This document shows, piece by piece, positions 3,449-11,638 of a DNA stretch of 64,000 nt. The stretch comes from a virus. The position numbers and the translations under genes are program-made. The notes beneath the pieces are model-generated. The model did not search any database, was not told the DNA's origin, and was given only the letters and a program-made list of their open reading frames with translations. The stretch covers positions 5,652-69,651 of the IMG/VR virus record IMGVR_UViG_3300020213_000029; one strand, 5' to 3'. Position 1 is the stretch's first letter; the number at the start of each line of letters is the position of its first letter.

Positions 3449-4174
3449 ATGAACATCGATGCGTTATGGAAGCGCTACAAACACGACCCCAAAGAGGCTG
3501 ATCGTAATGAGATCGCCATCTACTATATGCCTGCCGTCCGAAAAGTGGCGCAGACGATGGCGTACGGATTGCCGTCCAGTGTCGACGTGGAAGATTTGAA
3601 CTCGTACGGTCTGTTCGGTCTGTTCGATGCCATCGAAAAATTCGATCCCGATAAAGGGTTCAAGTTCGAGACCTATGCGGTGCAGCGAATCCGGGGCGCT
3701 ATCGTTGATTCGCTACGATCCCTCGACTGGGTGCCCCGGTCGGTGAGATCCCGAGGGCGAACCTTGGAGACGGCACTTTCGGAAGATCCGAGACGTTCCA
3801 CTGCCGGTGCCGCCGATCGGCTAGGCTGGACCGCTAAAGAGGCAAATGATACACTAATGAACGTCCACTCCGGAAACGTAGTTTCGCTTGAAGCGAGACT
3901 AGGCGACGAAGAGACTCAGCATGGGACCAGCCTGATGTATTTCATTACTGCACTCGATACGGCAGAGGACTTCGTCAGCATCGAATATGTCGTCAACGAG
4001 GTTGCTGCAGCGATCGAAGGGCTCCCGATGCGGGAAGGCCTGATCGTGGCCCTCTACTACTATGAAGGTTTGACGCTGGCCGAGATCGGTGCTTTACTGC
4101 ACGTTACTGAGAGTCGGGTCTGCCAGATCCATACCAAGATCTGTTATACAGTTCGGCGGGAGTTGTTGAATTGA
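3449..4174 (+). CDS. fliA: FliA/WhiG-family RNA polymerase sigma factor (sigma-28 type)
   Basis: EDLNSYGLFGLFDAIEKFDP..KFETYA..RIRGAI.D.LR.LDWVPRSVR; region 4 LYYYEGLTLAEIG..L.VTESRVCQIH. Confidence 0.93.
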   Translation: MNIDALWKRYKHDPKEADRNEIAIYYMPAVRKVAQTMAYGLPSSVDVEDLNSYGLFGLFDAIEKFDPDKGFKFETYAVQRIRGAIVDSLRSLDWVPRSVRSRGRTLETALSEDPRRSTAGAADRLGWTAKEANDTLMNVHSGNVVSLEARLGDEETQHGTSLMYFITALDTAEDFVSIEYVVNEVAAAIEGLPMREGLIVALYYYEGLTLAEIGALLHVTESRVCQIHTKICYTVRRELLN

Positions 4175-4353
4175 GCCGAAAACGAAGGAGGATGAACGCT
4201 AAGCAGCTCATTTCCATCGACGCCGATGTCAAGACGCTTCGGAAAATGGTCAACGAGATGGAGGAGCTAGCCGAGAGTGTGCAAGGCTTCTCCGTCTTGA
4301 CCCAGATGAAAAACGTGGCCATCGTGGATATTTCAGAGTACGCCCGACAATGA
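4171..4353 (+). CDS. Hypothetical protein
   Basis: Overlaps sigma gene stop and next start. Confidence 0.45.
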   Translation: MSRKRRRMNAKQLISIDADVKTLRKMVNEMEELAESVQGFSVLTQMKNVAIVDISEYARQ

Positions 4354-4589
4354 AAACAAAGTACCAGTCTGCTGGCCTCGGACACATGCGGTTTCCCTGC
4401 AGTACCTGCGGGCGCATCGTCTGGAAAAATCAGGACGAAGCGAAGCGGGAAGCGAAGAGGATCCGTGCCCGCTACGGAATCCGCACTGTTGCCGAAAAAT
4501 GTCGGGGCGCTCGTGCCGCCAACGGGTGGGATTGGGATTGGGGGTGCGGTTGGCATGTGGGAGTGAAGGGCTCAAAAAATAATCCTTGA
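4350..4589 (+). CDS. Small Cys/His protein typical of actinophages
   Basis: CxxC...C..C.GWHVG pattern. Confidence 0.55.
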   Translation: MKTKYQSAGLGHMRFPCSTCGRIVWKNQDEAKREAKRIRARYGIRTVAEKCRGARAANGWDWDWGCGWHVGVKGSKNNP

Positions 4590-4614
4590 CAGCCGATAGA
4601 TCTGGTAGTACAAT
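4586..4614 (+). promoter_or_regulatory. Near-consensus SigA promoter for PTH2 and the tRNA-like array
   Basis: TTGACA-17nt-TACAAT. Confidence 0.8.
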
Positions 4615-4676
4615 AGACAGCATCGACAACCGAAAGGCAGAAAACATTGTAGGGCAAACCTGAACCTCATGAGAAA

Positions 4677-5000
4677 ATGTACATCCTAGCTAGGGCCGAT
4701 ATCGGTCCCGGCCTTCAAGCGGCGCAATCAGCTCATGCCGCTTTTCAAATTTCAGCTGAGTATCCCCAAGTGGTCGAAGACTGGCTGAAAGATTCAAGCA
4801 CAATTGTGCTGCTGTCTGTTGACAGCGAAGATCAGTTGTTGGAATGGGCTGACGTATGCCACAAGGAACGGGTCACCTATCTCCTCGTGAGAGAACCCGA
4901 TCTGGGGGACGAGCACACGGCGCTGATCGTGCCTCCGTCGCATGTCGGCCCAAGATTTTCTGAGCTACCATTGCAAGGCGAGGTGGTTGTAGTGGTATAA
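4677..5000 (+). CDS. Peptidyl-tRNA hydrolase, PTH2 family
   Basis: MYILARADIGPGLQAAQSAHAA, IVLLSV.SE, REPDL..E.TAL motifs. Confidence 0.85.
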   Translation: MYILARADIGPGLQAAQSAHAAFQISAEYPQVVEDWLKDSSTIVLLSVDSEDQLLEWADVCHKERVTYLLVREPDLGDEHTALIVPPSHVGPRFSELPLQGEVVVVV

Positions 5001-5012
5001 TCAGAGAAACAT

Positions 5013-5075
5013 TCCGGGGAGAAGCGGCCAATCGGTTGCAGGCTTGTAGAAGTTCGAATCTTCACCCCGGAGCCA
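5013..5075 (+). ncRNA. tRNA-like element 1 (no canonical anticodon arm)
   Basis: Acceptor TCCGGGG/CCCCGGA, G discriminator, CCA; T-arm GAAG-TTCGAAT-CTTC; only 28 nt between the arms. Confidence 0.7.
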
Positions 5076-5076
5076 G

Positions 5077-5153
5077 CCTCGGCAGGGAATTCGCTATCAA
5101 GGAACGTGTAGCGGAAAGCCCTCTTTGATGTGCAGGTCATCAGCCGAGGACCA
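5077..5153 (+). ncRNA. tRNA-like element 2
   Basis: Acceptor CCTCGGC/GCCGAGG-A-CCA; 5-bp/7-nt T-like arm TGATG-TGCAGGT-CATCA; one long hairpin replaces the D and anticodon arms. Confidence 0.65.
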
Positions 5154-5154
5154 T

Positions 5155-5206
5155 GCCAGGGTCCCCGTACGGCGGGACTAGGAGTTCATTACTCGCCCTG
5201 GCTCCA
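5155..5206 (+). ncRNA. tRNA-like element 3 (52-nt minihelix-like)
   Basis: Acceptor GCCAGGG/CCCTGGC-T-CCA; short TCCC/GGGA hairpin; GAG-TTCATTA-CTC T-like arm. Confidence 0.65.
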
Positions 5207-5207
5207 T

Positions 5208-5280
5208 GCCTGAATAGTGTAGTAGCTGCACGCTCGACTCTAACTCGGGAAGGACCGGAGCGTAACCGGATCAGGCTCAA
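5208..5280 (+). tRNA. Atypical tRNA with CUA (amber) anticodon
   Basis: GCCTGA/TCAGGC acceptor, D stem GTGT/GCAC, anticodon stem CTCGA/TCGGG with loop CT-CTA-AC, T arm CCGG-AGCGTAA-CCGG; ends TCAA. Confidence 0.65.
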
Positions 5281-5283
5281 CAT

Positions 5284-5362
5284 GGCGGGATAGTGTATGG
5301 GCACGCCCTACTCGGCGATCGAGCTTAAGGGAAGAGGTTCCGTTCGATTCGGTCTCCCGCTA
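5284..5362 (+). ncRNA. tRNA-like element 5 with extended anticodon arm
   Basis: GGCGGGA/TCCCGCT acceptor, D stem GTGT/GCAC, CCCT..CTCG-GCGAT-CGAG..AGGG arm, TTCGATT T-loop. Confidence 0.6.
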
Positions 5363-5389
5363 CTCCGATAAGTACCCACGGAGATTGTC

Positions 5390-5974
5390 GTGGAGATGGT
5401 GCTATACGTGGCTGAATGCGAGTTTGATGACCTGGCGGCATTCATGGCCGATCAATCACACGATCCAAGTTTTGCCGACATAGCCGACGATGAGCAAATC
5501 CGTTCGAGGCTGCTTGATGACCTAGCGGCCACGCGAGAAATCGCAGGCATGACGCAGCTCGAAGTCGCGAGTCAGATGGGGACCACCCAGTCCGCAGTGT
5601 CCGAACTCGAAGCTGGTGAGAGCGATCCACGGCTTTCCACCCTGCAGCGCTACTCGCGAGCCGTTGGTGCGAAGTTGCACGTCGCCCCCTCAATGACTAA
5701 TCGAACCAAGGTCCGACAAGCGGTTGGCCGCCTGGTGGCGGGCGCTTGTTTTGCGGATGAAGAAGTTTGTTCTGGCGCGCCCGTCAACAGTGAGGGGCAG
5801 CGTGTCATCATCCCTGTCTCGGAAGATGAGCTGCTCATCGATGTGTGCGGTCTCGTTCGGCAGGCAGGCGGCGCAGCGCTGGTCGTAGCGGTGAACCTCG
5901 AACTGTCAACTCCTCACGATGTTTACCTCATCCACAGGGTGAGCAGTGCGCCAACAAGGCCCCTCAATGACTAA
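5390..5974 (+). CDS. Xre/HigA-like HTH protein with C-terminal extension
   Basis: R..AGMTQ.EVA.QMGTTQSAVSELEAGESDPRLSTLQRY..A.G. Confidence 0.8.
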   Translation: MEMVLYVAECEFDDLAAFMADQSHDPSFADIADDEQIRSRLLDDLAATREIAGMTQLEVASQMGTTQSAVSELEAGESDPRLSTLQRYSRAVGAKLHVAPSMTNRTKVRQAVGRLVAGACFADEEVCSGAPVNSEGQRVIIPVSEDELLIDVCGLVRQAGGAALVVAVNLELSTPHDVYLIHRVSSAPTRPLND

Positions 5975-5988
5975 TCGAACCAAGGTCC
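5686..5988 (+). repeat. 29-bp exact direct repeat (5686-5714 and 5960-5988)
   Basis: CCCCTCAATGACTAATCGAACCAAGGTCC occurs twice, 274 bp apart. Confidence 0.9.
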
Positions 5989-6152
5989 AGGTCGCCACGG
6001 ATGACGACGTTAGATCCGCGGTGCGGGATAGCCTCTCGGGGTTGGGGTTGACGTTCGATGAGTTACAGGCGCAGGCGGAAGCGGATCGTTTCGACAGCGA
6101 CCTCGCGAGGCGGACGTGGTTGGCAATCGCAGACCTTGCCGCTTACGCCTGA
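5967..6152 (+). CDS. Small hypothetical protein (LGLTFDEL..QA...F type)
   Basis: ATG lies inside the second repeat copy and overlaps the HTH gene end. Confidence 0.55.
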   Translation: MTNRTKVQVATDDDVRSAVRDSLSGLGLTFDELQAQAEADRFDSDLARRTWLAIADLAAYA

Positions 6153-6919
6153 CCCACCGACTTTATAATCAACTCTTCAGCTGTGAAGTTCTTCCCGATC
6201 GCTGCAGAATAGGTTGCCTTCAGCGGGCGAATCGAGTCTCGTTTGTATAGTTCGTGTATTTCTGGAGCGTTGTCATAGGACAAAAGCCAATCGTGCCCCT
6301 CATGTAGCAATGCTGCCAAATTCTCGTGATCGCTTTGTGTCAGATAGTGTTGATACATCGTCTTCCCCCGCATATAATACGGTGGGTCGACATAAAAAAA
6401 GGCGTCTTCCATCCTGGCTTTATCGATGACGTCTCGGAAATCGAGCTGCGTTACCGTGAGCCGGTCACGGAAGAGTTCCGTTGTGTCCTGTATTTGCCGG
6501 ACAAGATATTCTTGCCGCCACTCCGCATCGATCTTCCATTTTCCTGTTTGATTCCATCCGCCGACCGGCGACGTGTGAGACTTTCCGCTATAAGCAGTCC
6601 GGTTCAGGTAGATCGCAGCGAAAGCGTCGTCGACCGTAGACAGTTCTCGGAACAAATCGGTAGTAGCGGTCGTGGAGAGGATACGATCACATAAGGCATC
6701 AACGTTGCCGGTAGCAACCAGTTGCCAGAACGCAGCGATCTTCGAATCCAGATCGTTCAACCATATCAAACGATCTGGATCTCGTTGAGCTACGGCGATA
6801 CTGACACTGGCGCCACCGCAAAACGGTTCACAAAAAAGTGGACCCGGGGGGACGTCGTCAAGGAACAGATTGACGAGCTTTGACTTCCCCCCCGGATACC
6901 TGAAAATGTTTAGCTTCAA
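6143..6919 (-). CDS. dam: DNA adenine methyltransferase, Dam (D12) family
   Basis: FRYPGGKS, EPFCGGASV, ND.D, YVDPPY, LSYDN motifs. Confidence 0.92.
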   Translation of the reverse strand: MKLNIFRYPGGKSKLVNLFLDDVPPGPLFCEPFCGGASVSIAVAQRDPDRLIWLNDLDSKIAAFWQLVATGNVDALCDRILSTTATTDLFRELSTVDDAFAAIYLNRTAYSGKSHTSPVGGWNQTGKWKIDAEWRQEYLVRQIQDTTELFRDRLTVTQLDFRDVIDKARMEDAFFYVDPPYYMRGKTMYQHYLTQSDHENLAALLHEGHDWLLSYDNAPEIHELYKRDSIRPLKATYSAAIGKNFTAEELIIKSVGQA

Positions 6920-7236
6920 GGGGTAAGCCAGAAGGGATCGGCTTTTCCTTCAGCGACCAGTTCCAGAGTCTTCAGGTTTGTTTTTTCGGGCCATTGCTCT
7001 CTGAATGGGACACAATGCCCAAAAAAATCCGAGTACCATGCCCGATGTCCACCCCTACTGGCATGGGGACCGTCATGACCGGCTCGGAGGCAGCAGTGCC
7101 ACGACCGAGGTTTCGCCACGGACGCCCTCAAACCGCCGAATGTCAAAGCGATACTCTGACATGCGTTTGGGTGTCCGGGGTCGATAAGGTTATCGATCGG
7201 GATCTTCTCTTTGCGTCCCGATGACTGGTTCTTCAT
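6916..7236 (-). CDS. Hypothetical protein
   Basis: C.L..GH.GPH motif; 4-bp overlap with dam. Confidence 0.55.
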   Translation of the reverse strand: MKNQSSGRKEKIPIDNLIDPGHPNACQSIALTFGGLRASVAKPRSWHCCLRAGHDGPHASRGGHRAWYSDFFGHCVPFREQWPEKTNLKTLELVAEGKADPFWLTP

Positions 7237-7254
7237 GAGCGTTTCCTTTCGTCG

Positions 7255-7584: not shown

Positions 7585-8355
7585 TTAGAGGGGCGCTACT
7601 GAGAAGTGTTGCGGCTCCGATTTGCGGGACCGAGAATATTTGGTGCAGTCACTGCACGACCACTTTTGGAAGTGGCTGACGTTGGTGTGGTGAAATCCTC
7701 GCTTCATCAGATGTTCGCTGCCGCAGTGGGGACAGACATGCTGTCCATCGAATTCGGGGATCACCAGTCTTGGTGTGCCAGTAACGTAGGGCATGAGCGC
7801 TTCGTATACTTGTTCCAGGAGAACGACGTCCCGTCGATTATATTTTAGCATCTTGTTCAGCGCAGTCTGGTCTCCGTGATAACAAGATTTCCACAATTGG
7901 AAGTCGGTTTTGAGCTTCTTGCCGAGGCCGAGGATTTCGCCCAGATAATCCAACTTGTTGTACGCTAGCCGAAAGTTTCTCTTGGCCAACTTGCATGTAT
8001 CGATCGACCTCTTAGGACCGATCGGCGTCAGACCGAGTACCAGAAGCCGGTTGTTGAGCATAGGTATATCGAATCTGTCGCCATTGTGAGCGACAACGAC
8101 ATCGGCTTCCCGGATCATCTCAGCCAATTCAAATACGATTCTGCTGTCGTTTTGGTCTATCGCCTCTTGCGGTGTGACGCAGCCGGAAGTGATCGTTTTT
8201 TCGCCGAGCCATTTAGCGGACCACGTAAGCAAGAAACTGTCGTGGATGAGACGATCATGCGTAACATACTGGTCGGTGGGATGCCATATGTGTGCCAACA
8301 GAGGCCCACTCTCGATATCGTACAGCAGCACTCTGAGCTTGGTCATTATCGCCAA
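7585..8355 (-). CDS. DEDD/RNase H-like 3'-5' exonuclease with C-terminal Zn ribbon
   Basis: YDIES, AHNGDRFD, IDT, KLDYL, YN..DV; CPHCGS..C.DC. Confidence 0.85.
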   Translation of the reverse strand: MAIMTKLRVLLYDIESGPLLAHIWHPTDQYVTHDRLIHDSFLLTWSAKWLGEKTITSGCVTPQEAIDQNDSRIVFELAEMIREADVVVAHNGDRFDIPMLNNRLLVLGLTPIGPKRSIDTCKLAKRNFRLAYNKLDYLGEILGLGKKLKTDFQLWKSCYHGDQTALNKMLKYNRRDVVLLEQVYEALMPYVTGTPRLVIPEFDGQHVCPHCGSEHLMKRGFHHTNVSHFQKWSCSDCTKYSRSRKSEPQHFSVAPL

Positions 8356-8500: not shown

Positions 8501-11500
8501 ATGATAGTTAGGTCGCTCAAAGAGGAGCCTTTGCCTGTGTCAGACTACCTTTCTTTCCGGTTGCCCGAGTCTTTTATCGAGACCTACAAGGAGGGCAAGC
8601 CAGATTGGAAGTTTGGGATTGGGGGCGGCAATTCGCTGTCAGAGCTGACCTTTATTGGTAAGTATTCCCGCAAAAAGGGGGATGGGACGAAGGAACAGTG
8701 GTTCGATGTTTGTGAGCGTGTGATCAACGGCATGTACTCCATACTCAAGGATCACTGCACCCACCAGCGCACGCCATGGAATGAGTTCAAAGCACTCAAA
8801 AGTGCGCAGGATGCCTACGAACGAATGTATTCGTTCAAATGGTTGCCCCCTGGCCGGGGTCTGTGGATGATGGGGACGGACCTTGTCCACGGCGAAGGAC
8901 ACTCCAACGGTTTGCAAAATTGCTCCTTCATCAGTACCGCCAAACTGTCCACACACTCAGCGTGGGAAGCAACCGGTCCATTCATCCGAATGATGGAACA
9001 GGCAATGTGGGGCATTGGTTGTCTTGCCGAGGGTTCTATAATTATGACTTCCGATGGTCCTAAACCTATCGAGACTCTCGGTGGGGCTTGTGATGTCATC
9101 GTCGACGGAGTGAAACATCATTCCCCTACGGGGTCATGGTTCACCGGCGAAAAGAACGTTGTAGAGATCCGGACCAATGAAGGCTTTCGCCTTAAGCTGA
9201 CTCCCGACCATCAGGTAAAAACAGTAATCTACCGACGCTCAACAAACAATGTAGTCAGATGTGAATCAATCTGGAAAGAAGCACAAGCACTACTCCCGGG
9301 AGATCTAGTCGCACTGAGTCACGCCGGAGAGTATATCTGGGGAGGCGCAGGCACCTTTGATGAGGGTTATCTGGTCGGAGCCGTACTGGGGGACGGGTGG
9401 CTGGATGATGGGGGACGAGCGTTTGCCGCAGCTTACCGCAAAGATCACAACATGGAAGGGATAAAGCGACAGTGCGAAATCAGCGGTCAGTACGTTCCCC
9501 GACGCAACTGTGCTGGGGGTTGGCGTACTAAAAACAAAGACTGCGACATATACTCGGTAGGATCATGGGTATTTGATTATCTGTCTAAAACTCCTAAAAA
9601 TGTCAAGCCCACTGTCGAAGGGACGGGGGCTGATTTCCATATAGGGTTCCTTCGAGGGCTCTTCGATGCAGACGGATCAGTCATCGACTCCGGCCCCGAG
9701 GGTAGAGTTGTGAAGCTCACTCAAAGCAATCAAAACACATTGGAAGTCGTTCAACGCATGCTGTTAAGATTTGGAATAAGGAGCAACATAACGGTCAAGC
9801 GAGCCGAACAAGTGGAAGCCACAATTCTCGGGAAGGTGACCGTTTCAAATCCAGCCTGGGATCTTCAAATCGGGAAAGACGGAATCTCCAAGTTTGTGGA
9901 GATGATTGGCTTCTCGGAGGGTCCGAAGTCTGAGAGATTACTCGCAATGGGAAAGGATAGGCCATACCGTAGCAAACAGCGTCTTCATGCAGCGGTCACT
10001 GAAGTCCTCGCCTTGGACGAAAAAATGCGAACCTATGACATGTCGGTTCCAGACATCCAGACGTTCGATGCGAACGGCATGCAGGTCCATAATTGTGGCA
10101 GCGACACTCGGGGTGCGGGTCGGCTCATTCTAAACCAACCCATCGACCGCACCGAGATATTTACGGTACCAGACAGCCGAGAAGGGTGGGCCGAATCTGT
10201 CGGCAAACTTCTGGAATCATTTTTCTTTAAGAATCGTCCACGTCTGGAACACAACTATGATCTGATCCGGCCTGCTGGCTCTCCGCTGCAGCGGTTCGGT
10301 GGTTTTGCGTCGGGTCCGCAACCTTTGATCGACTGCCACGAATCGATCCGTGCCCAACTAGAAGATCGGGCGGGCGACCATATCACTAGCCGAGATATCA
10401 CCGACATTATCAACAAGATCGGCAAGGCAGTACAGGCCGGTGGCACTAGGCGTAGCGCTCAGATCATGTTCGGCGACCCCGACGACAAAGACTTCGTGAA
10501 CATCAAAAATTGGGAACTGGAAGAGAACGTCGAGCGAACCGGACCTGATGGTTGGGCGTGGAATTCGAATAATTCGGTCTTCGCGGAGACCGGTATTGAG
10601 TATTCTGATCTTGTTGAAACGATCAAGATTAACGGAGAGCCCGGCCTGTTTTGGTTAGAATTGGCGAGGTCATATGGTAGAATGGTTGACCCTCCAGACG
10701 GGAAAGATTGGCGTACCGTAGGTTCTAATCCTTGCGCTGAGCAGACGCTTGAACACATGGAAGTATGCACATTAGTAGAGATGTTTCCGAACCTTCATAA
10801 CGACTTCGACGATTTCAAACAAACGATTAAAGCGGCCTACCTTTATGGCAAAGCCGTTACACTGTTACCGACAACGTGGCCAGAAACAAACGAGGTCATG
10901 GCCCGCAATCGTCGGATCGGATGCTCGATGTCTGGGCTCGCCCAGTTCGTGGAAGAGCGGGGCTGGATGCAGCTCAAAACGTGGATGGACGACGGTTACA
11001 GTTTTCTGGTTCATCGAGACACAAAATACTCTGAATGGCTGGCGGTACGGGAATCCATCAAGAAGACCAGCATCAAACCGAGCGGCACAGTATCCATTGT
11101 GGCGGGTGTGACGCCGGGAGTGCATTGGCCGGTCAAATCGGGCTACTATATTCGTCGAATCCGCTACACGATATTCGACCCGATCGTAGACGTGCTCAAA
11201 GATGCCGGGTACGATGTCGAGCCGAGCTACGACGACCCAAGCAACACCGTCGTAGTATCCTTCCCCACTCGGGGACCGGTCATGCGGGACGAACGCAATG
11301 TCACCATCTGGGAAAAAGTAGAACTCGCTGTACTGGCGCAGCGATATTGGGCGGACAACCAGGTCAGTGCTACGATCTCATTCATGCCCCACGAAGTTGA
11401 CCAAGTGGCGCACGTGTTGTCCGCCAAAGACGGGCAACTGAAAAGTATTTCGTTCCTGCCGATCACAGACGCAGGGACATCGCATCGGCAAGCGCCCTAT

Positions 11501-11638
11501 GAGCCGATCGAAGCTTTCACTGCAGAGGCGATGATGGCGAAGATCAAACCGATCAGCCTAGATCGGCTCTACGGCCGGGAATCCTTGGAGGCCCAAGGCG
11601 AACGCTTCTGTGATACCGAACGTTGCGAACTACGCTAA
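8501..11638 (+). CDS. nrdJ: Class II (B12-dependent) ribonucleotide reductase with intein (true start probably ~8531-8537)
   Basis: PPGRGLW, NC, GGTRRSA, NPCAE, IKPSGTVS, NQVSAT, C-terminal FCDTERC. Confidence 0.92.
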   Translation: MIVRSLKEEPLPVSDYLSFRLPESFIETYKEGKPDWKFGIGGGNSLSELTFIGKYSRKKGDGTKEQWFDVCERVINGMYSILKDHCTHQRTPWNEFKALKSAQDAYERMYSFKWLPPGRGLWMMGTDLVHGEGHSNGLQNCSFISTAKLSTHSAWEATGPFIRMMEQAMWGIGCLAEGSIIMTSDGPKPIETLGGACDVIVDGVKHHSPTGSWFTGEKNVVEIRTNEGFRLKLTPDHQVKTVIYRRSTNNVVRCESIWKEAQALLPGDLVALSHAGEYIWGGAGTFDEGYLVGAVLGDGWLDDGGRAFAAAYRKDHNMEGIKRQCEISGQYVPRRNCAGGWRTKNKDCDIYSVGSWVFDYLSKTPKNVKPTVEGTGADFHIGFLRGLFDADGSVIDSGPEGRVVKLTQSNQNTLEVVQRMLLRFGIRSNITVKRAEQVEATILGKVTVSNPAWDLQIGKDGISKFVEMIGFSEGPKSERLLAMGKDRPYRSKQRLHAAVTEVLALDEKMRTYDMSVPDIQTFDANGMQVHNCGSDTRGAGRLILNQPIDRTEIFTVPDSREGWAESVGKLLESFFFKNRPRLEHNYDLIRPAGSPLQRFGGFASGPQPLIDCHESIRAQLEDRAGDHITSRDITDIINKIGKAVQAGGTRRSAQIMFGDPDDKDFVNIKNWELEENVERTGPDGWAWNSNNSVFAETGIEYSDLVETIKINGEPGLFWLELARSYGRMVDPPDGKDWRTVGSNPCAEQTLEHMEVCTLVEMFPNLHNDFDDFKQTIKAAYLYGKAVTLLPTTWPETNEVMARNRRIGCSMSGLAQFVEERGWMQLKTWMDDGYSFLVHRDTKYSEWLAVRESIKKTSIKPSGTVSIVAGVTPGVHWPVKSGYYIRRIRYTIFDPIVDVLKDAGYDVEPSYDDPSNTVVVSFPTRGPVMRDERNVTIWEKVELAVLAQRYWADNQVSATISFMPHEVDQVAHVLSAKDGQLKSISFLPITDAGTSHRQAPYEPIEAFTAEAMMAKIKPISLDRLYGRESLEAQGERFCDTERCELR
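9020..10093 (+). mobile_element. Intein with LAGLIDADG endonuclease in nrdJ
   Basis: CLAEGS...TPDH...FLRGLFDADG...YD..V....VHN|C. Confidence 0.9.

Follow-up and report, generated by a model that had tools for sequence, protein, structure and literature searches.

A recurrent phage cassette of a PTH2-like gene, an upstream TAG codon, a CUA-anticodon tRNA and tandem tRNA-shaped units lacking anticodon arms

What a phage could gain from tRNA-shaped RNAs without the arm that reads codons is the question raised by positions 4586–5362 of the DNA analysed here, a 64,000-nt part (hereafter, the window) of the virus record IMGVR_UViG_3300020213_000029, which is 69,651 b long and has an estimated completeness of 36%. 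In this region a gene for a PTH2-like protein, i.e. a protein of a peptidyl-tRNA hydrolase family, is followed by five tRNA-shaped units (U1–U5) arranged head-to-tail, of which U1 starts 12 nt past the PTH2 stop. The arrangement recurs behind related PTH2-like genes of other phages, with covarying stems in related units, an excess of encoded CCA ends, a regular 1-nt spacing and, ahead of the PTH2 frame, a stop codon that matches the anticodon of a tRNA in the same array. The features of the locus are as follows.

4586..4614, + strand: sigma-70-type promoter, TTGACA/17 nt/TACAAT, 11/12 consensus matches
4647..4652, + strand: candidate start TTG (4647-4649) and in-frame TAG (4650-4652; the gate), 9 codons before ATG4677
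4677..5000, + strand: gene for a PTH2-fold protein of 107 aa from ATG4677, assigned by Pfam PF01981, PDB profile and fold match
5013..5075, + strand: U1, 63-nt tRNA mimic; 7-bp acceptor, internal hairpin, 4-bp T-like stem, TTCGAAT loop, discriminator G, CCA
5077..5153, + strand: U2, 77-nt tRNA mimic; 7-bp acceptor, long interrupted hairpin, 5-bp T-like stem, 7-nt loop, discriminator A, CCA
5155..5206, + strand: U3, 52-nt tRNA mimic; 7-8-bp acceptor, short hairpin, 4-bp T-like hairpin, discriminator U, CCA
5208..5277, + strand: U4, CUA-anticodon tRNA; aberrant T loop, discriminator U, then CAA, not CCA
5284..5362, + strand: U5, tRNA-like unit; acceptor stem, D-arm-like hairpin, TTCGATT loop on a weak T stem, no CCA

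Architecture of the units and its recurrence

In U1, U2 and U3 all seven acceptor pairs are of the Watson-Crick type and are followed by a discriminator and an encoded CCA, and the D and anticodon arms are absent; the spacers between U1, U2, U3 and U4 are exactly 1 nt. The minimum-energy folds of U2 (z -2.55) and U3 (z -2.93; 0.71 of the ensemble) consist of the acceptor, one internal hairpin and a T-like hairpin. In the fold of U3 the acceptor has 8 bp and the T stem 4 bp, and the size of this unit fits the 51-56-nt class of units found at other loci. Judged by the definition of an acceptor/T-arm minihelix, U1–U3 are extended minihelices with an extra internal hairpin: U2 has every element (7 bp, 5 bp, 7-nt loop, ACCA), U1 has 7+4 bp and U3 has 8+4 bp. 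We counted perfect 7-bp stems that close 30-100 nt and are followed by N-CCA on both strands of the 64 kb; the window has 17 such sites, and three of them, U1–U3, lie inside 195 nt (Poisson P ~1.6e-6 for this stretch, ~1e-3 when corrected for all stretches).

The original prediction, made from the letters alone, had described five tandem tRNA-shaped units behind the PTH2 gene, and we find them at 5013-5362, with the same lengths of 63, 77 and 52 nt for U1–U3 on re-reading. Its account of U1–U3 stands for the stems, the discriminator, the CCA and the single hairpin that replaces the D and anticodon arms, and has to be softened for the T arm: the loops of U2 and U3 are non-canonical, and the tRNA-like fold of U1 lies 1.4 kcal/mol above its minimum. 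For U5, in which an over-long anticodon arm had been noted, a long irregular hairpin does occupy that position, and the tRNA-like fold of the whole unit is 6.4 kcal/mol above its minimum, the weakest of the five. The D-arm region of U5 has sequence in common with U4 (by eye), and U5 is likely a degenerate or damaged paralogue of U4. The Gly-like pattern (G1-C72, C2-G71, U73) that had been assigned to units 3–5 is present in U3 and U4, and in U5 it appears only when the register is shifted by one base; the 7-bp register of U5 gives G1-U72 and A73.

The low or absent scores that had been anticipated for U1–U3 in tRNA-finding programs were obtained: none of U1, U2, U3 and U5 has an ARAGORN call or an Rfam match at E up to 10, and these four units are thus not tRNAs by cloverleaf or family score. 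U4 is the sole ARAGORN tRNA call in the whole window, and its score for the Rfam tRNA family (RF00005; 26.9 bits, E 0.0042) is below the gathering score of 29. Rfam families other than tRNA gave three further rows in 4400-5600 at E up to 10 (E 1.5-6.9), all outside the units. The relaxed and mitochondrial modes of ARAGORN produced overlapping and mutually inconsistent low-score calls, one of them on the wrong strand, and we rejected them as evidence of structure. A four-base anticodon in U5 was also discarded; it appeared only as a weak relaxed ARAGORN call ('cggc'), and the fold there is a long hairpin with a 5-nt loop.

Related loci were collected in two rounds, the query being first the PTH2 protein and then a six-relative alignment; 16 viral, 69 metagenome and 3 genome-contig loci were obtained, and 69 loci (L numbers below), the window counted, were left after removal of duplicates. 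Units that combine a 7-bp acceptor, a T arm and N-CCA and are not called as tRNAs were found 56 times in the 28,214 nt that directly follow PTH2 stops (1.98/kb) and 69 times in the remaining 465,784 nt of the loci on both strands (0.15/kb), a 13-fold difference. At least one such unit is present in 35 of the 66 loci that have at least 100 nt downstream of PTH2, in arrays of one to five units per locus. Where a CUA tRNA lies downstream, the spacer before it holds a strict unit in 24/34 loci and, under looser rules, in 30/34. When CCA was not required in the search, an NCCA end was encoded by 25/44 uncalled acceptor+T units, as compared with 29/142 canonical tRNAs of the same loci. The next element begins exactly 1 nt away after 21/51 units, and the first element lies 4-12 nt past the PTH2 stop in 24/41 loci. 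Three units in a row occur in distant phages (the window, L004, L011, L002 and L013), and in the window, L004 and L011 they are followed by tRNA(CUA), all with 1-nt spacers and with unrelated sequences. Units may also stand on the 3' side of the suppressor tRNA, as do U5 and a unit in L028.

Searching phage records with tblastn gave 221 matches, of which 207 belong to Mycobacterium phages; blastn of 4300-5700 in its distant setting gave no match in those records. In Bixzunavirus Astraea and a Myrnavirus record, the stretch between the genes labelled 'peptidyl tRNA hydrolase' and 'tRNA (cta)' is unannotated, and the matching IMG/VR loci (L013, L002, L004) have two or three CCA-ended units in that stretch; cluster C mycobacteriophages thus carry CCA-ended units in an unannotated gap, which in the Bixzunavirus record NC_021349 spans 91203-91509. 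In the Bixzunavirus-like locus L002 we also observed two further CCA-ended units without a tRNA call (97 and 85 nt, separated by 1 nt; L002:1663-1845), and because this pair lies ~1.5 kb upstream of the PTH2 gene, unusual units are not confined to the PTH2 spacer. In four loci (L016, L030, L044, L062) the spacer from the PTH2 stop to tRNA-CUA is 384-531 nt long and looks, by eye, protein-coding rather than RNA-like, so some lineages may have an extra small gene inside the cassette. L003 has a transfer-messenger RNA (tmRNA) within the same array.

The units fall into classes of 34 nt (a pure minihelix), 51-58 nt (with a short extra hairpin) and 62-77 nt (with a long one). The 34-nt units, 14 sequences from L004:3335-3458, L011:3330-3452, L005, L033, L036, L045 and L056, align without gaps (alignment A2) and consist of 11-12 bp, a loop that is mostly G-G-U-C-A-A-A-G, and N-CCA; a U2-G71 wobble is present in 7/14. 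Over 11 pairs, 154/154 cells are paired, and two-sided change is seen in 11/11 pairs; none of 500 shuffled controls reached these values (0/500), and a slid control was likewise far off. Since the sequences had been picked by the outer 7 pairs only, the inner 4 pairs provide an independent test. A covariance model of this class found 17 matches at E<0.001 (the 14 seed sequences, one duplicate locus, L057, and two new ones), all on the PTH2 strand. In the window the model gave no match at E up to 1, so that the longer, extended types are the only ones there and the pure 34-nt form is lacking. The pair counts concern the 34-nt class, a MAFFT alignment of 14 units of 51-56 nt having been excluded because its 5' strands were out of register. 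At this position, related phages thus hold not intact tRNAs but equally shortened CCA-ended units whose stems differ yet pair, and these compensatory changes uphold the earlier claim that the acceptor/T half is under selection and is not decaying at random.

We also noticed by eye a 7-nt loop, UGUGAGG or UGUAAGG, which recurs on covarying 4-5-bp stems in distant loci, as the internal hairpin loop in L004, L032, L042 and L058 and at the T-arm position in L012, L013 and L054; it fits the U-N-N-R-A T-loop motif.

DNA of the window itself has been sequenced repeatedly. A 2,576-b contig (L089) corresponds to window 4665-7240 with 99.9% identity and 3 mismatches, none of which is in the RNAs; it was binned with a metagenome-assembled genome (MAG) of Planctomycetota, which is a weak host hint based on binning only. 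Near-identical DNA is present in contigs of four microbial-mat runs, two of which are possibly the record's own source; beside the binned contig, three microbial-mat runs are identical wherever they cover the stretch. A rhizosphere contig (X5, depth 2.7) has T5013>A and T in place of A5071, and the 1:72 pair of U1 is kept; this single contig is the lineage-specific covariation for U1–U3.

The PTH2-like gene, its upstream TAG and the CUA tRNA

The protein encoded at 4677-5000 reaches 34.6 bits for Pfam PF01981 against a cut-off of 23 (E 2.4e-8), and a profile of six relatives matches the PDB chains of archaeal Pth2 and human Bit1, with 2zv3 at E 2.8e-8. Its AlphaFold model (mean predicted local distance difference test score, 87.9) gives Foldseek template modelling (TM) scores of 0.72-0.78 with 2zv3, 3erj, 1q7s and 1xty. 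By the curated score and the predicted fold, therefore, the protein is a PTH2 family member, in accordance with the original prediction; the three closest relatives (P0002-P0004) have 45-68% identity. For Pth2 of S. solfataricus, two residues are reported to be critical, the lysine in the N-terminal G-K motif and the aspartate in D-x-G. The aspartate is invariant in the phage PTH2-like proteins (as P-D-L-G). The archaeal lysine is replaced in the aligned phage clade by an invariant Leu, and across the 62 of 69 loci with a match to the motif, Leu occupies the position in 54 and Lys in 1. The consensus promoter that had been proposed ahead of the gene is also there, and the shuffled region contains on average 0.6 promoter sites; similar hexamers were read upstream of the PTH2 genes of related loci.

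Upstream of ATG4677 the PTH2 frame stays open for nine sense codons back to TAG4650, which is directly preceded by TTG4647, and a purine-rich GAAAGG lies 9 nt upstream of this TTG. Started at TTG4647 and read through the TAG, the frame has 117 codons. U4, whose anticodon is CUA, begins 207 nt past the PTH2 stop on the same strand and would be able to read TAG4650. This correspondence is general among the relatives. When the frame is followed upstream from the conserved N-terminal motif, TAG is the first stop in 47/67 scorable loci, and the 47 comprise 37/37 loci with a nearby + strand tRNA(CUA) and 10/30 others (Fisher P 5e-10). A start codon lies at most 7 codons upstream of the TAG in 35/37 of the CUA loci and is adjacent to it in 16/37. 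In 20/37, the interval between the TAG and the motif has no ATG, GTG or TTG, and because no start is available there, these 20 loci cannot make the protein without read-through. At the locus L031 (region L031:800-1110, PTH2 stop at 893), the codon in the gate position is TGA, lying four codons behind an ATG, and the tRNA located 139-211 nt past the stop has the anticodon UCA; as far as can be read from the DNA, nature has here exchanged the gate codon and the suppressor anticodon together.

Genome-wide recoding of TAG was considered and ruled out, because 81% of the window is covered by 53 non-overlapping standard-code open reading frames (ORFs) of at least 120 aa, 14 of which terminate in TAG. 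The one conserved target that we saw for the CUA tRNA, as predicted from these comparisons, is the single codon that heads the adjacent PTH2-like gene. The 43 cassette CUA tRNAs (U4 and 42 others) have diverse acceptor stems and discriminators in their alignment, a sign that it may be of little importance which amino acid is placed at the gate. Because U4 is an amber suppressor and the PTH2 frame has a conserved TAG, two points that the original prediction did not include, the PTH2 gene and the RNA array are tied into one cassette, and we are highly confident that 4586-5362, read as a single transcription unit, is a member of this conserved phage cassette.

The surroundings of the cassette look like an early or replication region. 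A sigma-70-family factor (3449-4174) and a ParB-like DUF6551 protein (1998-2828) are encoded among its neighbours, and on the - strand a D12-class adenine methyltransferase (6143-6919) and an RNase H-fold protein (7585-8355). Further features are listed below.

5390-5974: helix-turn-helix gene after U5, by domain call
5686-5714 and 5960-5988: 29-nt exact direct repeat, within the helix-turn-helix gene and across its end; the second copy overlaps the start of the next ORF (5946-6152), and the same short peptide is read in both frames
8501-11638: ribonucleotide reductase gene, split by an intein with a LAGLIDADG endonuclease domain

Possible roles of the units

Taking the locus as a whole, the best explanation, which we prefer tentatively and hold at somewhat short of an even chance, is a cassette of PTH2-like gene, TAG gate and CUA tRNA whose other units are trans-acting mimics of the top half of tRNA. 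In this scheme RNase P would cut at the 5' end of every unit, and because the spacers are 1 nt, only a single base would then stand between the preceding unit and its mature CCA end; the row of units would thus be diced into small, stable, non-decoding RNAs with a genuine acceptor end. Dicing by RNase P is plausible because, according to the available portion of PMC4201824, the enzyme cleaves the tRNA-like domain of YrlA in M. smegmatis, a domain with a 7-bp acceptor to which CCA is added. Release of the units as separate CCA-ended RNAs is, in our estimate, probable. Once released, they could bind proteins that recognise the acceptor/T half, as their ligands or as decoys; candidate targets would be toxins that modify the CCA end (toxSAS, nucleotidyltransferases of the MenT type, GNAT acetylases) or sensors of the RelA type, and such decoys would spare real tRNAs, including the suppressor needed for the full-length PTH2-like protein. 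A role in trans is favoured because each phage has several different units, because they have encoded CCA, T-loop-like motifs that are kept and stems that change fast, and because minihelices can serve as toxin substrates: in the accessible part of 10.1101/2024.07.05.602228, synthetic minihelices are efficient substrates of the toxSAS FaRel2. The specific role of decoy or ligand, though our first choice, is a possibility that we hold at well below an even chance. The original prediction had offered four candidate roles: minihelix decoy, mimic immune to anticodon nucleases, ribosome-rescue partner of PTH2 and aminoacyl donor.

Several points tell against this explanation, and we collect them here. 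With Leu in place of the G-K lysine, as seen in the alignment, even the peptidyl-tRNA hydrolase activity of the PTH2-like protein is only putative. In the window, ATG4677 stands directly before the conserved motif and offers an ungated start, so that read-through is not obligatory there and the gate may be leaky, partial or optional. U1–U3 have no sequence homologues in the other loci, with which they have only the architecture in common. The X5 contig, a single contig of depth 2.7, appears to read CTT for the CCA of U1 and has a 12-nt insertion in the loop of the U1 internal hairpin. When the acceptor stems of U1–U5 were compared with 30 tRNAs (30 of 41 Rfam matches) of the MAG that holds the 2,576-b contig, a host link by binning only, no exact match was found; the best case was U3 with tRNA-Thr(CGU) at 7/8 positions, and CCA is encoded in 3/30 of these tRNAs. 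Comparison of the unit acceptor stems with 175 phage tRNAs also gave no consistent match. We found no RNA run containing this DNA and no published expression or processing data for any cassette member in the literature, and we know of no decoy target in any host.

Among the alternatives, the one that survives best regards the units as elements working in cis. As tRNA-shaped punctuation, they would be the sites at which RNase P, by its cuts, defines where the PTH2 mRNA ends and where the suppressor tRNA begins; they would in addition shield the folding of the suppressor from terminating ribosomes, and the released pieces would serve no further purpose. The position of the first element just behind the PTH2 stop (12 nt in the window) speaks for this role, as do the units that, in many loci, end 1 nt short of the CUA tRNA and the internal parts that evolve freely and tolerate insertion, as in the X5 contig. 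The encoded CCA would be explained too, since small RNase P substrates depend on a 3' RCCA in the portion of PMC12710915 at hand, and plant mitochondrial t-elements provide a precedent, to judge from the accessible text of PMC1920247. For punctuation, however, one unit would suffice, and rows of three are nevertheless found in distant phages whose units are unrelated in sequence. Different lineages have also kept T-loop-like motifs and recurrent loop sequences on covarying stems, and units are found downstream of the suppressor as well. We consider a purely cis role unlikely, though it deserves serious attention.

Less probable still, and in our judgement decidedly so, is that a host synthetase charges the mimics by way of acceptor-stem identity and that these serve as aminoacylated partners of the PTH2-like enzyme. 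The mimics would then enter stalled ribosomes or ribosomes with an empty A site, or take part in another transfer reaction; they would accept a peptide or acyl group and be cleared by the enzyme, and this rescue would offset the read-through caused by the suppressor. Such read-through is expected from an active suppressor, because TAG ends 14/53 ORFs, and the tight linkage of PTH2-like gene, mimics and suppressor fits this idea, as does the tmRNA in the L003 array; the tRNA-like domain of tmRNA is a precedent for an anticodon-less acceptor that enters ribosomes, as described in the part of PMC4201824 at our disposal. The alanine identity pair G3-U70, however, is absent from all 14 minihelices (0/14; pair 3:28 in their numbering), discriminators and stems vary with no common identity set, the PTH2-like protein is without the G-K lysine, and no SmpB-like gene was seen adjoining the window cassette.

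That the units are functionless remnants of a decaying tRNA array, with D and anticodon arms deleted, is most improbable: phage tRNA arrays do turn over quickly, U5 does resemble a damaged copy of U4, U1–U3 lack sequence homologues elsewhere and the window has no other tRNA genes, but in each of U1–U3 the 7-bp stem is perfect, the CCA is encoded and the spacing is exactly 1 nt, the same shortened architectures, with compensatory changes, occur in distant phages, a larger share of short units (25/44) than of intact neighbouring tRNAs (29/142) encodes CCA, and the region is identical in a second assembly and three other runs.

We return to the trans-acting top-half mimics. If they are combined with a PTH2 gene switched by its suppressor, the cassette could contain the first natural genes for free-standing minihelix RNAs, diced by RNase P and used in trans either as sponges of host enzymes by which the CCA end of tRNA is attacked or sensed or as anticodon-less partners of the PTH2-like protein, and could represent an undescribed, self-contained phage module that controls or protects the acceptor end of the tRNA pool; this joint claim is speculative, and we judge it possible without expecting it.

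Comparison with known systems

The nearest counterparts of the units are synthetic minihelices and microhelices, which likewise have a 12-bp coaxial stem of acceptor and T arm, a T-like loop, a discriminator and CCA, and the 34-nt units of the relatives are exactly so. Synthetic minihelices have been laboratory tools for decades, as model substrates of RNase P, the CCA-adding enzyme and some synthetases. Those are laboratory constructs, whereas here they are natural tandem genes in phage operons, and the window units differ further in carrying an extra internal hairpin (52-77 nt in total).

Non-decoding RNAs of tRNA shape are also known as processing elements. The mascRNA of MALAT1 is one such element at an mRNA end. 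Plant mitochondrial t-elements, in the excerpt available of PMC1920247, are likewise tRNA-shaped, non-decoding, located at mRNA ends and cut by tRNA-processing enzymes. Both t-elements and mascRNA are eukaryotic or organellar, usually single and without encoded CCA, whereas the phage units form arrays of one to five with CCA beside a suppressor tRNA. Phages T5 (RNA1, RNA2) and T4 (species 1 and 2) have stable non-decoding RNAs of 100-140 nt among their tRNA genes. To our knowledge, these are neither CCA-ended minihelices nor linked to PTH2. The tRNA-like domains of YrlA and tmRNA likewise mimic the acceptor/T arm without an anticodon, and they are parts of larger RNAs with the partners Ro60/Rsr, SmpB and AlaRS, while the phage units are free-standing and much smaller. 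The units thus resemble t-elements, YrlA and tmRNA domains and the stable RNAs of T4 and T5 but do not belong to any of them.

In phages with a recoded stop codon (TAG or TGA), crAss-like phages among them, a CUA tRNA of the phage reportedly reads TAG (Borges et al.). The present phage likewise has its own CUA tRNA and instead uses the standard code. The 8/4 or 9/3 tRNAs of bacteria and phages, as presented in the accessible section of PMC5389517, share with U3 an acceptor and T stem of 12 bp in total (8 bp and 4 bp in U3), but they are complete decoding tRNAs, and U3 has no anticodon arm. For phage XacN1, whose CUA tRNAs pose a similar puzzle, the authors found no targets according to the part of PMC5852040 that is available. 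A PTH2-like gene in the tRNA arrays of cluster C phages is noted, with nothing further, in the available portion of PMC5966550, and our searches of the main texts of papers turned up no account of either the short units or the TAG gate.

Set against these systems, RNAs of the acceptor/T half, long a tool of the laboratory, are here conserved natural genes in arrays, and the cassette supplies a conserved target for the puzzling amber-suppressor tRNAs of standard-code phages. It is common to soil and mat phages and to more than 200 sequenced mycobacteriophages that grow on a laboratory host. If the units prove to be decoys for acceptor-end toxins, they would reveal a new principle of counter-defence, and if the mimics work with the PTH2-like protein, a new system of translation rescue or control; either reading can be tested directly in M. 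smegmatis phages.

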